64,000 nucleotides of DNA, taken from NCBI GenBank assembly GCA_963815195.1, contig CAWFGE010000012.1, forward strand, positions 1 to 64,000. Direction: 5' to 3'. The notes under the pieces are model-generated. The model had not been told where the DNA came from, did not search any database, and worked only from the letters and a program-made list of their open reading frames with translations. How positions within the stretch are numbered: the first letter of the stretch is position 1; each line of letters begins with the position of its first letter. Source of the stretch: an uncultured Planctomycetaceae bacterium. GTDB lineage: Bacteria; Planctomycetota; Planctomycetia; Planctomycetales; Planctomycetaceae. A program made the translations under genes and the position numbers. Positions 1,399-6,439 of the stretch are shown here, in pieces.

Positions 1399-1839
1399 TT
1401 AGCGGGTTTTCGGCTTCTTGTTTTCGGACGCTTTTTTGTCTTTCATCGACTGTTTGAAGCGGTAGCTTTCGCCGTTCATCTCGAAGATGTGGCAATGGTG
1501 CGTGATGCGGTCCAGTAATGCCGCGGTCATGCGTTCGCCTTGGAAGATTTGCCCCCAATCGCTAAAGGCCAGGTTGCTCGTGATCAGCAGGCTCTTGCGT
1601 TCGTAGCGATCCGCGAAGACCTGGAACAACAACTCTGCTCCCGACCGGTTGAACGACAAGTAACCCAGTTCATCCACGATCAACAAATCGAGCTTGTCGA
1701 GTTGGTTCAACAACCGCTCCAAGGTGTAATGTTTCTGAGCTTCTTCCAGGCGATTCACCAAAGCCGCGGCGGTGAAGAACTTGGTCTTATAACCCGCTCG
1801 GCACGCGGCCAGGCCCAATCCAATGCTGATATGAGTTTT
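1399..1839 (-). pseudogene. istB: istB 3' half (IS21 AAA+ helper ATPase), from the Walker A K-T-H onward
   Basis: KTHISIGLGLAACRAG...LLIVDELGY (Walker B)...LITSNL...AALLDRITHHC...GESYR. Confidence 0.9.
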
Positions 1840-1842
1840 GAC

Positions 1843-3918
1843 TCAGCCATTGTTGTGCCCCCTTGGGATAGTGATTTGCTCGGTTTCGTGATTTTTGAGT
1901 TTTAGCATGGCGTCTTTAACCTCCTCAGTTTTGGGAAACAGATAGCACCGATAAATTGGATCGACAGAAACCACGATCTGTCTTTGCTCAATTTTATGAT
2001 ACATCCAGGATATGTTGCGCCCGATTTCCTGAGCCATTTCCGCGGCGGTCCAGGCATGGGGCAGGTTCTTTGCACGCGGGCTTTTGATCCGGTAGCGATG
2101 TCTTAACTTGTTCACGATTTGCGAGGTGAATTGTTCGCCACGACAGGGATGATGGCCTTCGCGATTGAGATCCGCCGCGATCATTTCACTCGACCGGCCT
2201 TCGCTGGTTTCTTGCCGGATGCGTTCCACGATGTGCTCTTCCAAGTCCGTGTGTTTCATTGAAAAACGCCGTAGGAGAGCCGACGTTTCGGTCACCGAAC
2301 CGCCGGCCCAGACCATGCGAATTTGCACCAGCCCATCCGATTGCCGGTGAAGATTGACTCCCGTAATCATCGTCCGCAACAACGACTTCTTCGCCTCCCA
2401 AGACAACTCGGGCCAGAGTTCGGGAAGCTGCCGCCCGACATCCGCGAAGGCGTCTCGCAAGGACTTTGGTACGCGGATCGGTTGGGGAATTTCTCGGCGG
2501 GCATCCGCCAGGTTTTCTTCGGCTTGCTTTTGCGCCAACAAAGCCGATTCCCATTTCTCTTCCAGACTGGCCGCAATCAAACGGTTCTTGGGATCGACAC
2601 AGTCGTATTGTTGCTCGGCCCGATGGGCGGCGTATTGCAGTCGCCCGACGTCTTGCTCCAAATGCCGAACCACGTCCGCATGCGTGCGAGCCCTTTCGGC
2701 GGAGAGTTTCTCCAACACATCGATCTCGGCAGGCCGCAGCACTTCAAAGAAAGCTTCCGTCACCGCCTCGTCGATCTTGTTGCCGCCCAAGTACTGGCAG
2801 GATCGTTGGGCGTAATGCCGATAGCCAGAATTGCATGAGTATTGAAAGCGGTTCTCCTTGTAATTCACTCCCATCGTTCGACCGCATTTTCCGCAGCGCA
2901 ATAAGCCCGTTAACAACGCGCAGCCGTTGCGGATGGCTTGCTTGGCGGCGAGTCGTTGTTGGATGCGGAGGTTGTTTTGAGCGATTCGGCGTTGGTTGTC
3001 TTCGTACTGCTCCCAACTGATATAGGCCGGGTAGATGCCGGGAATTAAGACCGACCATTCCGCTTGGGGCCGGCGCGTGCGACCCGTGGCAGGACGACCG
3101 GGAATTCGTAGCGTGGGATCGACTTGCCGACGCCCATGAGCAAACGCGCCTGCATAAGCCGGGTTATGCAGGATCGAGCCCAACGAAGCGGCCGTGGCTT
3201 CTCTCCAAAACACTTCGCCCGCATAAAGGCCCGAAACTTGGTGCCGGGGAATCTTCAAATTTTTCTTGGCCAGGAACGTCAAGACTTTTTGAATCGTGCC
3301 CAACTCCACGAACTTGTCGAACACCAAATGCAATCGCTTTTGAATGCTCAGATCGGGATCGAGCATCACCGTCTTGTCCAGATTGCGGACCAAGCCCGTC
3401 GGCAAGTTTTGCACCAACTCGCCCCGCGCGGCCTTCGACAATCGACCCGCGTCCAATCGCAATCGGAGGCTATGGAGCTCTGCCGAAGACATCGTGCCCT
3501 TCAAGCCTAAGAGGAGCCTGTCGTTGAAATCCCGTGGATGATACAACCCATCCACATCACCGATGAGTGTGTCAAAGATCGCACACAATTCCAACAGTCG
3601 ATGCCAGTCCACATCGTTGCGGGAAAGCCGCGAAACTTCATAGCCCAGAATGATGCCGACCTTACCCAAGCCGACGTCGGCGACCATCTGTTGAAAGGCC
3701 CCGCGTCCCGCCGTTTGCGTGGCCGATTGCCCTTGATCATCCTCCAGGATGCTGACTTGTTCCGGCTTCCACCCCAACTCCAACAACCGGGTTTTCAAGG
3801 CTCGCTGGTTGTGGGCACTCTCTTGGTTTTTCTCGACCTGCTTCGTCGTGCTCTGACGAAGATATACGATCCCGCGGCGATTCAAATGGCTGGTGCTGAC
3901 TTTCATCGATCCGTTCAT
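1843..3918 (-). CDS. Large serine recombinase (resolvase, recombinase and Zn-ribbon domains), 691 aa
   Basis: YLRQST catalytic motif, EVSRLSR, LLLGLKGTMS, NPAYAG, LLTGLLRCGKCG. Confidence 0.93.
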   Translation of the reverse strand: MNGSMKVSTSHLNRRGIVYLRQSTTKQVEKNQESAHNQRALKTRLLELGWKPEQVSILEDDQGQSATQTAGRGAFQQMVADVGLGKVGIILGYEVSRLSRNDVDWHRLLELCAIFDTLIGDVDGLYHPRDFNDRLLLGLKGTMSSAELHSLRLRLDAGRLSKAARGELVQNLPTGLVRNLDKTVMLDPDLSIQKRLHLVFDKFVELGTIQKVLTFLAKKNLKIPRHQVSGLYAGEVFWREATAASLGSILHNPAYAGAFAHGRRQVDPTLRIPGRPATGRTRRPQAEWSVLIPGIYPAYISWEQYEDNQRRIAQNNLRIQQRLAAKQAIRNGCALLTGLLRCGKCGRTMGVNYKENRFQYSCNSGYRHYAQRSCQYLGGNKIDEAVTEAFFEVLRPAEIDVLEKLSAERARTHADVVRHLEQDVGRLQYAAHRAEQQYDCVDPKNRLIAASLEEKWESALLAQKQAEENLADARREIPQPIRVPKSLRDAFADVGRQLPELWPELSWEAKKSLLRTMITGVNLHRQSDGLVQIRMVWAGGSVTETSALLRRFSMKHTDLEEHIVERIRQETSEGRSSEMIAADLNREGHHPCRGEQFTSQIVNKLRHRYRIKSPRAKNLPHAWTAAEMAQEIGRNISWMYHKIEQRQIVVSVDPIYRCYLFPKTEEVKDAMLKLKNHETEQITIPRGHNNG

Positions 3919-4021
3919 GCTCCAGTTCCTCCGTTAGAATGACGACGATTTGCTGGATGATCCGCTGCTGCTCTGGAAGAGTCAGACGGTTCCACACCTG
4001 GTCCGTGGCAATGGGTGACAT
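3737..4021 (-). CDS. Small hypothetical accessory protein overlapping the LSR start
   Basis: ATG with GGAGGG/GGAAG upstream; helical N-terminus VWNRLTLPEQQRIIQQIV; position typical of small ORFs ahead of such recombinases. Confidence 0.5.
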   Translation of the reverse strand: MSPIATDQVWNRLTLPEQQRIIQQIVVILTEELEHERIDESQHQPFESPRDRISSSEHDEAGREKPRECPQPASLENPVVGVGVEAGTSQHPGG

Positions 4022-4315
4022 CGGCTTCCCTCCGAGAAAGAATATCCCGAAAGGTAGTCACCAAATCCTGGAGCGCGTCCAGGGTCAGACAGGAAGTTTT
4101 TTGGGGAGGAGCGGTGGAAAGGTTCGTGCTGCTGACGTCGATGTAGGTCATCTCGTCAGGAAAAATCTCGACTTGATAATACTGACGATAACCTGGCAGG
4201 CGGGCTAAGCCGAACAAATCAAATGTTCGGCCATAAAGCGGATGGGCCGGATCGGTGACGGTGATCTCACCGCGCGATAACTGAGTGACCAGAGGGGTCT
4301 TGTGATGGTCGGACC
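3915..4315 (-). CDS. Accessory ORF (DUF5372-like ITVTDPAHPLYGRTF motif) with no ATG upstream of the motif in the integrated state
   Basis: Frame of ORF 3915..4217 stays open upstream to the element boundary; motif recognised from memory. Confidence 0.55.
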
Positions 4316-4647
4316 TTCCCAGTTCCGGGCGGACCGAGCAGCAAAATGTCGGCGGCTTCGCGAATAAACTTCCCCGTCGCCAGGTCCATGATTCGGCGTT
4401 TGGGGAGAGTGGGGTTGAAGGAAAAATCGAGTTGGTCGAGGGTCTTCATCTCGCGGAACTGGGCCAGCTTCAATCGCCGATCGATCGCCCGTTGGCGACG
4501 GATTGCCAACTCATCGCTTAACACCAGTTCCAAGAACTCGGCATGCGACAAGCCGTTGCCGATGGCTTCTTGCAGCCTGACTTCCAAGGATTCGATCAGG
4601 CCGCTCAAGCGGAGTTGCTTCAGCATCTGCATTAAATTTCCATTCAT
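4316..4647 (-). pseudogene. istB: istB 5' half, ending in Walker A GPPGTGK
   Basis: LKQLRLSG...KTLDQLDFSFNP...ILLLGPPGTGK; ATGA overlap with the istA stop. Confidence 0.9.
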
Positions 4648-6226
4648 CGGTTTTGCTCCTTTCGAAGAGCGGCTTTGACAAACTCGGAATAACTCACCAG
4701 CGGCCGAATGACCGGGTGTTCGTCTAAAAACTCAAACTGGGCTTGCACGGGGGCGTTGCGGTCGATCAGCTTGCGAACGGTCCTCAGTCGGTAGGCTCCA
4801 TACGAGTGGGCGGTGCGGCACGCGCGTTCGATGTCCTCGCGCGAATGCTTGTCGGCCAGTTGCTTGAGGCCCATCAACACCCGCACGCCCTCAATGCCGC
4901 GTGCTCCCAGCATGGCCGCGGACCAATCCCTGGTTTCCGGGCCGATTTCGCTGACTTTCGCCAGCCACCAGGTGGCTCCGCGTTCCACGCCGGAGATTTT
5001 CCTCGCGTGCAAATGGGTGTTCTGCGTGCTGAACTTTCCCGGTTCTTGACGGGCATGCAAGGCGATCTGTTCCAGCTTGGCATTGAAGATGCGCACCAGC
5101 CGCGCATCCCAGCGCACCCAGACTTTCCTTCCCAGAAATTCCGGCGGCACGGAGTAATACGCCTTGTCCACGGAAATGTGCCCATCGCGATGCACGCTCC
5201 GCAGGGCTTCATGGAAAAACGGAAATCGTTCCAACGGCAACGGCAACGGAAACAGTGCTGACCGTTCCCGTTCGCGAAACGCCTTGCCCACTTGCTCTCT
5301 GGTCGTTCCATGAATCCGCGTATCGGCCACGGTGGATTCCCAGGCCCACAAGTGTTCGTTCTGTTCGCGCAGGCTTCGGAACGTCCGCCCTTTGAGTGCG
5401 TTTTCTTGGGCGTAGTCCACGCCGCGTTCGACCTTGCCTTTGTGTCGGGGCGTGCGAACCCGCGTGGGCAAAAACACCGTGCCGTAGTGCGCGGCGAACG
5501 ATTGAATCTTGGGGTTCAGTTCCGGGTCGAACCAATCCGCCTTGCTCACGGCGGCGCGCAAGTTATCGATGATCAGAGTCTTGGGCACACCTCCAAAATG
5601 CCAGAACGCACTCTCCAGACACCGAATGAAGTTGTCGGTGGTCTGGCGATCGATCGCTTCCGTGTAGCCTTTACGGCTGTGGCTCAGCACGACCCGCAAC
5701 ACGTGTGGCCGGCGACGACGGCCGTTCTCATCCACGACGGCCGCGGCTTGGCCAAAGTCCACTTGAGCTTCCGCGCCGGGTGCGCATTCCAATCGACGAA
5801 ACGGCAACTCCTTCGAAGACCGCAACTGCCGCACGAAGCGTTTCACGCTGTCGTAGCCATGGGGAAAATCATGGTCATTCGACAGGTCCTGGAAAATTCG
5901 CTGCGCGGAAAGTCCCTGGCCGAGCTTTTCTAAAATGACATCCCGCCAAGGCTCGCAGCGGCTCCGCGAAAGTTCCGACTCGTCCTTCTCAGAATCGTCT
6001 TCAAGGGCCTCACGAAGGTCCTCCGACCCGGCGGGCAGTTGGCCCTCGGACCCGGTGGGCACTTTGGCCTCGGACCCGGTGGGCACTTTGGCCGGTTTTG
6101 AAGCGAGATGGGCGGCCACCGTTGAACGGTGAATGCCCAATTCGCGGGCAATCTTGCGCAAAGACCAGCCTTGAGGCGCAAAGTGTGAATGGCTTGAACC
6201 GTGTCCATCGAGAGCTGATTCGACAT
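4644..6226 (-). CDS. istA: IS21 transposase IstA (DDE), apparent 1-bp frameshift near 6173
   Basis: HTH GWSLRKIARELGIHRSTV; AQVDFG, IIDNLRAAV, KGKVERGV; ATG at 6226 with GAGGA SD lies in another frame. Confidence 0.9.
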
Positions 6227-6439
6227 CGCTTGTTTTCCTCTGAGAAAACTCAAAGGAGAACAAAATGTCGAATCCCTTTCCTCTCAAAATGGCCGGTTTT
6301 GAACTGCCCACAAGTGGCCGGTTTTCACTGCCCGGTGACATTACGCCGTTTTTCGACCGGCTTATCGAACGACGGGTTCTACAGTACCAGTCTAGCCTGA
6401 TGGTGCGGGGGGCAGGGGGCTGAAAATTTCGTTTCACCG

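Follow-up and report, generated by a model that had tools for sequence, protein, structure and literature searches.

A mobile element encoding a large serine recombinase (LSR) was identified in a 64,000-nucleotide (nt) stretch of DNA from an uncultured Planctomycetaceae bacterium (contig CAWFGE010000012.1, positions 1 to 64,000), referred to here as the window. All coordinates are those of the window and all features listed are on the minus strand. The element occupies 1838..4317 and is 2480 bp long in its integrated state, including a copy of the dinucleotide AA at each end. The left AA is at 4316..4317 and the right AA at 1838..1839. The foreign DNA between the left AA (4317-4316) and the right AA (1839-1838) amounts to 2476 bp. 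Three genes are encoded in the element, all on one strand, in the order open reading frame 1 (ORF1), the overlapping ORF2 and the LSR. The body of ORF1 (3915..4316) consists of 133 codons and a stop, is DUF5372-like and has no start of its own before codon 34. ORF2 (3737..4021) lies in an overlapping frame and has its own GGAGGG, 6 nt and ATG. The LSR gene (1843..3918) encodes 691 amino acids with the Pfam domains Resolvase (17-167), Recombinase (197-315) and Zn_ribbon_recom (335-389). The element is inserted in an istB gene. The 5' part of istB (4318..4647) runs to the G-T-G of Walker A and covers positions 2-106 of the Pfam IstB_IS21 profile, while the 3' part (1399..1837) runs from the third base of the Lys codon and covers positions 105-236. 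The istA transposase gene of the host IS21-family element (4644..6437; Pfam rve and Mu-transpos_C_2) is upstream on the same strand.

The left AA supplies bases one and two of the Lys codon in the istB motif GPPGTGK. The istB gene is split after G-P-P-G-T-G and resumes as K-T-H-I-S-I-G-L past the right AA. Eight full copies and one partial copy of the element were found in the genome, with identities of 99.4-100%. At least three types of left flank and at least four types of right flank surrounded these copies, and all were P-loop codons of IstB-type genes. The junctions were invariant among the copies, with GG[GA]-AA|GGTCC on the left and GAGTC-AA|[AG]A[CG] on the right. A 2-bp crossover is common to the attachment sites attL and attR, with AA at both ends of the eight copies and no further duplication of the target. 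Joining the flanks in silico restored G-x-G-K-[TS]. Intact P-loops were present in related istB genes (C23:241474-241689 and contig C10), showing that the empty site exists, and seven of the nine IstB-like P-loops found in the genome with this query were occupied by the element. Contigs from other metagenomes that share the element diverged exactly at 1838 and 4317. The junctions of the copies, the restored P-loop and these loose ends agree, and the crossover is therefore AA and the excised circle would be 2478 bp, as the preliminary description of this DNA had proposed. The presence of copies in different istB types implies past movement, which would have occurred by LSR excision and reinsertion. 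Rearrangement was considered as an explanation for flanks that looked chimeric and was unneeded, since at least the C18-type pairing also occurs as an intact istB. The length of the circle is a multiple of three, and a meaning for this was rejected as the lengths of related elements are 0, 1 and 2 modulo 3.

The ORF1 frame opens at AGG 4316 and remains open to 3915. The first ATG, GTG or TTG in this frame is the TTG at 4217 (codon 34), which lies past the motif ITVTDPAHPLYGRTF. The preliminary description had noted an open frame without an ATG before this motif, and this was found to be so. No start codon was present in the left flank of the window element back to an in-frame stop 44 codons upstream. 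ORF2 and the LSR of the window element have start sites in cis and ORF1 does not.

A profile search yielded 189 cluster representatives related to ORF1 (E-value <=1e-3), and the protein was conserved across Planctomycetota, Chloroflexota and Pseudomonadota-type records. The family motif was N-T-P-L-V-T-E-x-C-E-G-x-V-T-V-T-D-P-x-H-P-L-[FY]-G-R. An AlphaFold (AF2) model of ORF1 had a mean predicted local distance difference test (pLDDT) score of 81.8, with values >90 for most of residues 20-100. The predicted fold was a small SH3/KOW-like beta-barrel followed by a long helix and a basic tail. Among 36 distinct left ends of the closest subfamily the third codon positions were the most variable from element nt +16 onward (1.14-1.43 bits vs 0.10-0.66). 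Codons 1-5 of ORF1 had a non-coding-like entropy pattern in the same alignment. Judged by its 189 relatives, its confident fold and its third-position variation, ORF1 is a real gene.

Related left ends were examined for a start codon. Among the 48 left ends of the P-loop group none had an ATG before codon 11, and 36 had no ATG, GTG or TTG before codon 18. In 22 of the 48 the left flank contained no start before the in-frame stop. No internal or flank start for ORF1 was conserved among the 48. Relatives in the databases carry N-terminal extensions which are a +1-frame reading of the target P-loop, for example ...W-G-V-R-E-Q-E-N-L-N-Q-H-N-T-P-L-V-T-E. Evidently these represent gene callers reaching for a non-existent start. 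A phylum-wide sample of 401 genomes gave three weak matches only. A plasmid collection also gave three weak ORF1 matches, which were in messy or unannotated regions. The ORF1-like frames at NZ_AP023183.1 803955-804260 and NZ_CP141049.1 1008189-1008401, both in complete plasmids of named Pseudomonadota, had no annotated gene. Annotation pipelines would be expected to miss such frames if the gene has no start.

A region at the opposite end of the element (1840..1864) is the proposed site of translation initiation for ORF1. Here the minus strand reads AAGGGGG (1864-1858), the 7 nt CACAACA, the ATG at 1850-1848 and three more codons to the crossover. This ATG is 11 nt before the crossover and in phase with ORF1. 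The same bases double as the P arm of the attachment site attP and as the last codons of the recombinase, the stop of which (TGA, 1845-1843) is 4 nt past the ORF1 ATG. The position of this ATG just before the recombinase stop had been described correctly. So had the result of joining the ends, which is an uninterrupted ORF of 137 codons, including four junction codons, preceded by a purine-rich, Shine-Dalgarno (SD)-like sequence (AAGGGGG). The attP is inside the element's own gene, with the in-phase start 11 nt before the crossover and a coding signature that resumes at most 16 nt after it. In the integrated state the right-end ATG reads 31 out-of-frame istB codons (1848-1758) to a TGA, as had also been noted, and the resulting peptide is probably a by-product.

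Conservation of the frame across the junction in homologous elements had been named in the preliminary description as a test. The loci gathered for this comprised one genome-contig locus, 80 metagenome loci and two further genomes. For P-loop targets the crossover was set by the target's own frame (G-x-G-K on the left and K-[TS]-H on the right). For other targets it was taken from the shared core sequence or from the same element in different flanks, and these rules were coded by hand. Both ends were definable in 37 related elements. These are not all independent, as L044/45, L078/79, L088/91/95 and L089/94 are in each case the same element at different sites. Outside the 37 were L060 and L080, whose contigs do not extend to the crossover; L075 and L092, where an ATG would be in phase by eye and the crossover was not independently fixable; L070, L077, L085, L101 and L124, where the recombinase or right end was disrupted or absent; and all remaining loci, which lacked a right end.

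Of the 37 elements, 36 had a canonical start (33 ATG, 1 GTG and 2 TTG) at exactly -11 nt relative to the first crossover base, reading into ORF1 in phase and without a stop. The exception (L123) had CTG at this position and an in-phase ATG at -38, where 8 of the 16 closest elements have an ATG as well. No stop was found across the in silico junction in any of the 37, and an SD-like motif was present 7-9 nt upstream of the start in 32 of 35 elements. The -11 geometry was constant over the crossovers AA, TA and GT and over element lengths of 2446-3229 bp, which included every residue modulo 3. It was likewise constant with the LSR stop 1, 6, 24-45 or 631 nt from the crossover. In elements whose LSR ends before the terminus, the short tail reads GGAGGG or GAGGG followed by 7 nt, the ATG and three codons up to the crossover. 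In one element (L084:2698-3330) approximately 600 bp of cargo, a helix-turn-helix, transposase-like ORF, lies between the LSR stop and the right terminus. The family can apparently carry passengers while the terminal block of SD and ATG is retained.

Two of the refuting conditions named in the preliminary description, a crossover other than AA and a frame not conserved across the junction, were examined and both came out in favour of that description. The arrangement is well beyond what chance at a single locus would give. The best-supported reading is that ORF1 is completed only by circularisation of the element, to which a probability of roughly 0.7 was assigned. A protein conserved across phyla must be translated, and the sole conserved start is the one that spans the junction. 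The weight of the argument rests on elimination rather than on the number of elements in phase, because the conserved phase amounts to roughly a single ancestral event (prior 1 in 3) and not to 37 trials. All the elements are homologous and there are no indels between the start and the crossover.

The function of ORF1 was not readable from its structure, because only generic small barrels were matched (Z about 5). A model of ORF1 in complex with the full LSR gave an ipSAE of 0.74 in all three runs, while the best of three controls gave 0.00. In a reference set, 116 of 157 solved complexes and 2 of 215 mismatched pairs reached this ipSAE mark, counts that apply only roughly here because the model was built on the authors' own alignments. 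The runs agreed in at least 58% of contacts and the partner pLDDT was at least 61. On the LSR side the predicted interface consisted of residues 341-346 in the zinc ribbon and residues 393-408 and 481-544, which flank the coiled-coil insert. On the ORF1 side it consisted of residues 23-28, 51-57 and 73-92, corresponding to the DPxHPL motif and the helix. The DPxHPL motif is upstream of every internal start. Complexes of LSRs with recombination directionality factors (RDFs) have been solved structurally, and the score of the model could in part be a learned likeness to these. ORF1 is predicted to be RDF-like in its place of binding, namely the LSR zinc ribbon and the base of the coiled coil. 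The preliminary description had proposed that the protein acts as a recombination-state switch. This role is strengthened by the complex model, which places ORF1 on the zinc ribbon and coiled-coil base, and it stays a proposal about function. A role as a topology-sensing directionality cofactor is plausible.

A number of observations weigh against a start that serves only the circle. The attP is quasi-palindromic, as judged by eye from aligned sequences, and each arm carries a G-rich block (positions 19-22, counted from the crossover), 7 nt and an NTG (positions 9-11). The P' arm (4290..4315), which also encodes ORF1 codons 1-9, mirrors the right-end arm. It has [T/G]TG at positions 9-11, and the complement of its two blocks codes for the conserved ORF1 residues Q-R-N-T-P. 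Binding of the recombinase could by itself be enough to maintain the SD-like block and the TG, and the conserved start is confounded with the symmetry of the half-sites. The last 24 nt (eight codons) before the LSR stop had third positions that were less variable than first and second positions (0.41 vs 0.70 bits), which points to an extra constraint and does not by itself identify its kind. In 12 of the 48 relatives one of codons 10-13 is GTG or ATG. In the G761 element (L122, G761:C5; encodes P0001) the boundary codon is ATG, formed by the second A of the crossover and TG, and ORF1 of this element has a start in both states in addition to the -11 ATG in the circle. Relatives such as this could initiate while integrated, and strict gating may not apply to every member of the family. 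The searches of the fold gave generic SH3/KOW/Tudor-like barrels only (Foldseek E>=0.026, VIA Z<=5.5). An exact 40-nt in silico junction had no matches in the whole genome and 103 loci. Metagenome contigs (Logan, four runs) compared with 1500-4700 contained no circle or tandem joint, which is not evidence of absence since such contigs drop rare forms. A scan of 1500-4700 for promoter consensus sequences found none on the element strand, where the host promoter type may differ and the joined junction was outside the scan; the two matches on the opposite strand correspond to the chance rate.

Several of these observations would be accounted for if the SD-like block and NTG at the right end were recombinase half-site motifs only and ORF1 were translated in the integrated state from an internal GTG or TTG, a near-cognate codon or a start in the +1 frame of the target, with no switch. 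The occurrence of the same two blocks at the same distances in both arms, the starts at codons 10-13, the G761 boundary ATG and the failure to find a circle in the genome, loci or contigs are all consistent with this, as is the presence of some in-frame start in 24 of the 48 left flanks. No such start is conserved, however, and 22 of the 48 flanks have none. The targets vary between IstB, ParA-like, serine recombinase and IS5-like transposase genes, so that the flank would be an unreliable source of a start. The coding signature begins at 16 nt, upstream of all internal starts. Initiation at codon 34 or later, as in the window, would lose the most conserved motif of the protein, which is in the predicted interface (residues 18-30). 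The P arm also differs from its mirror image, as the A of ATG at position 11 is present in 33 of the 37 elements, where the mirrored P' arm has T or G and so reads TTG or GTG, and the purine run is fuller in the P arm. Translation from within the integrated element with no role for the junction was judged unlikely. The earlier claim that full-length ORF1 is made from the circle only holds in so far as no conserved internal or flank start exists, and is weakened by the G761 boundary ATG and by the half-site confound.

One database protein (P0014) is an in-frame fusion of IstB and ORF1, which also counts against a junction-dependent start. It raises the question of whether the integrated ORF1 is expressed joined to the first 110 residues of IstB, or to a different target protein, through programmed +1 frameshifting or through termination and reinitiation at the insertion point. 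In favour of such a fusion, P-loop insertions are always in the same orientation and codon phase, which keeps the frame relation to the target constant. P0014 and its out-of-frame twin P0030 differ by a single A within a homopolymer, however, possibly as a result of a sequencing error. The frame of ORF1 is +1, and GGG-AAG-G offers no slippery sequence. The frame of the target reaches a stop after 5-21 codons of element sequence, the place varying between elements, and the elements of subfamily B enter recombinase genes in either orientation. Expression as a fusion is on these grounds highly improbable, and completion of ORF1 by circularisation was retained as the preferred reading.

The LSR has a Y-x-R-x-S motif that was conserved in 26 aligned homologues. 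It also has a strong SD of its own (GGAGGTG). In the window element the ORF1 stop overlaps the LSR start as ATGA, and an NTGA overlap was found in 21 of 28 elements, which suggests coupled translation in the circle. The junction ORF might on this basis be real and its protein sequence of little matter, serving as an upstream coupling ORF that raises LSR translation in the circle, comparable to the junction promoter of Tn4451. The distance of 4 nt between the ORF1 ATG and the LSR stop in subfamily A fits this as well. A mere coupling ORF does not explain a protein that is conserved across phyla with a confident fold, nor its predicted binding to the LSR. Nor would the LSR, with its own strong SD, obviously depend on coupling, and in 4 of the 28 elements the ORF1 stop is at least 38 nt from the LSR start. 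A purely coupling role is quite improbable, and an ORF1 protein completed at the junction is preferred. Transcription of the integrated element is likely to come from read-through of istA-istB.

ORF2 overlaps the tail of ORF1 and the first 60 codons of the LSR. An N-terminal core of approximately 45 residues was conserved, which can be written as V-W-x-x-L-x(6-8)-I-V-x-I-L-T-E-E-V-E-x-E-R-F, and tblastn gave matches in 37 of 81 related loci. No Pfam family matched ORF2. It could be the true excision factor.

The label DUF5372-like, which had been applied to ORF1 in the preliminary description, holds as a remote relationship. The window ORF1 matched no Pfam family at E<=10 and does not reach the gathering score of DUF5372 (25 bits). 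PF17342 (DUF5372) matched none of 32 closer relatives at E<=0.01, and no ORF1 copy was found when its model was run over the whole genome. Among the distant relatives recovered with the ORF1 profile, 5 of 105 matched PF17342 and two of these were above the cut-off. The nearest ESM-Atlas clusters to ORF1 carry DUF5372 in 28 of 30 cases. The two share the motif [VI]TVTDPxHPL[FY]G and are of the same size. Remote kinship, and not membership, is the relationship supported by these comparisons. DUF5372 has no described function, and a literature search, with most subscription journals outside its coverage, found no paper that mentions it.

Recombination sites inside genes are known from other systems, and the suggestion that no junction-built start codon had been described for so minimal an LSR element needed trimming. 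The integrases of SSV-type elements (fusellovirus/Thermococcales) have attP inside int, so that integration splits the gene and it is whole only in the excised circle (PMC7253208). The likeness is that an element's own recombination site is inside its own gene. In SSV-type elements the tyrosine integrase itself is split, whereas here the start site and four codons of an accessory protein are detached and the serine recombinase is intact in both states. In integration-dependent immunity the repressor exists in two active forms that differ in stability, because its 3' end is exchanged. The system is described for mycobacteriophage BPs and its relatives as having attP in a regulatory gene with a product that differs between the integrated and free states (PMC4557955). 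Here the 5' start would be removed instead, which predicts on/off control. Integration-dependent immunity also involves a tyrosine integrase and a full phage, in contrast to the 2.5-kb element described here.

Circle-junction promoters are established for insertion sequences such as those of the IS911 type, and circles of IS110-type elements rebuild a promoter for the guide RNA. Tn4451/Tn4453, which are moved by the LSR TnpX, have a circle-junction promoter (Lyras and Rood 2000, as cited in PMC13023037). Pcirc of ICEclc and P3'end of ICEKp1 are given as circle-dependent expression signals in the same paper (PMC13023037). In each of these, end joining creates an expression signal that exists in the circle only, and Tn4451 is also moved by an LSR. 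The known signals are transcriptional, with hexamers united or a promoter put upstream of int, whereas here a translational start is joined to the body of an ORF.

RDFs of LSRs are the other point of comparison. A classical RDF is needed before excision. ORF1 resembles the RDFs phiC31 gp3 and SPbeta SprB in that it is a small accessory protein encoded beside an LSR, with a predicted contact at the zinc domain and coiled-coil base. The protein gp3 is reported to bind phiC31 integrase via the zinc domain (PMC5814800), and RDFs are reported to share no common fold (PMC11795197). No sequence match or fold match between ORF1 and known RDFs was obtained in the fold searches. ORF1 would differ in appearing only after excision, and would have to favour integration or damp excision to benefit the element. 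Reinsertion would be hindered by a classical RDF that appeared only once the element was excised. The arrangement would make most sense, speculatively, if ORF1 favours integration or damps excision, perhaps against ORF2. The literature search found nothing on a detached start codon or ribosome-binding site or on LSR elements in istB, a provisional result given that coverage. The proposed junction-built start would be a new form of the principle of attP inside a gene, in a previously undescribed family of minimal LSR elements.

The family targets DNA that encodes conserved motifs of other mobile-element genes (genome copies and L044, L057, L065, L076, L079 and L098). With the crossover AA the target is the Walker A Lys codon in genes for IstB and ParA-like ATPases. 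With the crossover TA it is a palindromic core at the Tyr codon of the D-G-x-Y|D-P motif, entered in either orientation, in genes for other serine recombinases. A third target is the L-A-K|T-H motif of an IS5-like transposase. Discontinuous target flanks were observed in the recombinase-targeting subfamily at L065, L069, L073, L085 and L100, with discontinuous right flanks at L078, L093 and L100. Examples are loci where both flanks read Y-D-P-A-x-Y-N in opposite orientations and loci with an unrelated right flank. Such flanks point to copies having recombined, with inversion or deletion as the outcome, or to chimeric assembly at the repeat. The targeting of such motifs amounts to parasitism on parasites and accounts for the occupation of seven of the nine IstB-like P-loops in the genome.

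In the proposed mechanism the 2478-bp element would be moved by the LSR and inserted in the Walker A Lys codon of an IS21 istB, with its attP inside its own ORF1. The P arm at the right end would supply the SD-like block, the ATG and three codons, and the P' arm at the left end the remaining 133 codons. While the element is integrated ORF1 would be without a start and either unmade or made by accident only. ORF2 and the LSR would be expressed from their own start sites, probably on istA-istB read-through transcripts. Excision by the LSR would join the ends at AA and make the 137-codon ORF1 translatable. The circle would be coding throughout with its genes coupled, because the ORF1 stop overlaps the LSR start and the LSR stop is 4 nt past the ORF1 ATG. 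The product would differ between the integrated and excised states because there is no start in the integrated form. From these features we infer that ORF1 is translated from the circle, binds the LSR and affects its direction. Most likely it would bias the LSR in the excised state, and the direction of recombination would follow the topology of the element.

A further step can be offered tentatively, and is on balance doubtful. The family may use attP as the initiation region of an RDF-like, DUF5372-like partner, a factor that would be present only while the element is excised. The logic would then be inverted, in that the LSR alone excises, the LSR with the factor integrates, and integration destroys the gene for the factor and resets the system. 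If true, this would be a self-sensing switch with no regulator in 2.5 kb of fully coding DNA.

LSRs are leading tools for the insertion of large DNA, and control of direction is their main practical limit. A cofactor set by the state of recombination would, if true, represent a new and very compact form of self-limiting control. The finding would also provide the first functional context for DUF5372 and for the far larger unannotated periphery around it (189 cluster representatives), the members of which most gene callers would mis-start or miss because body and start of the gene lie at opposite ends of the element.

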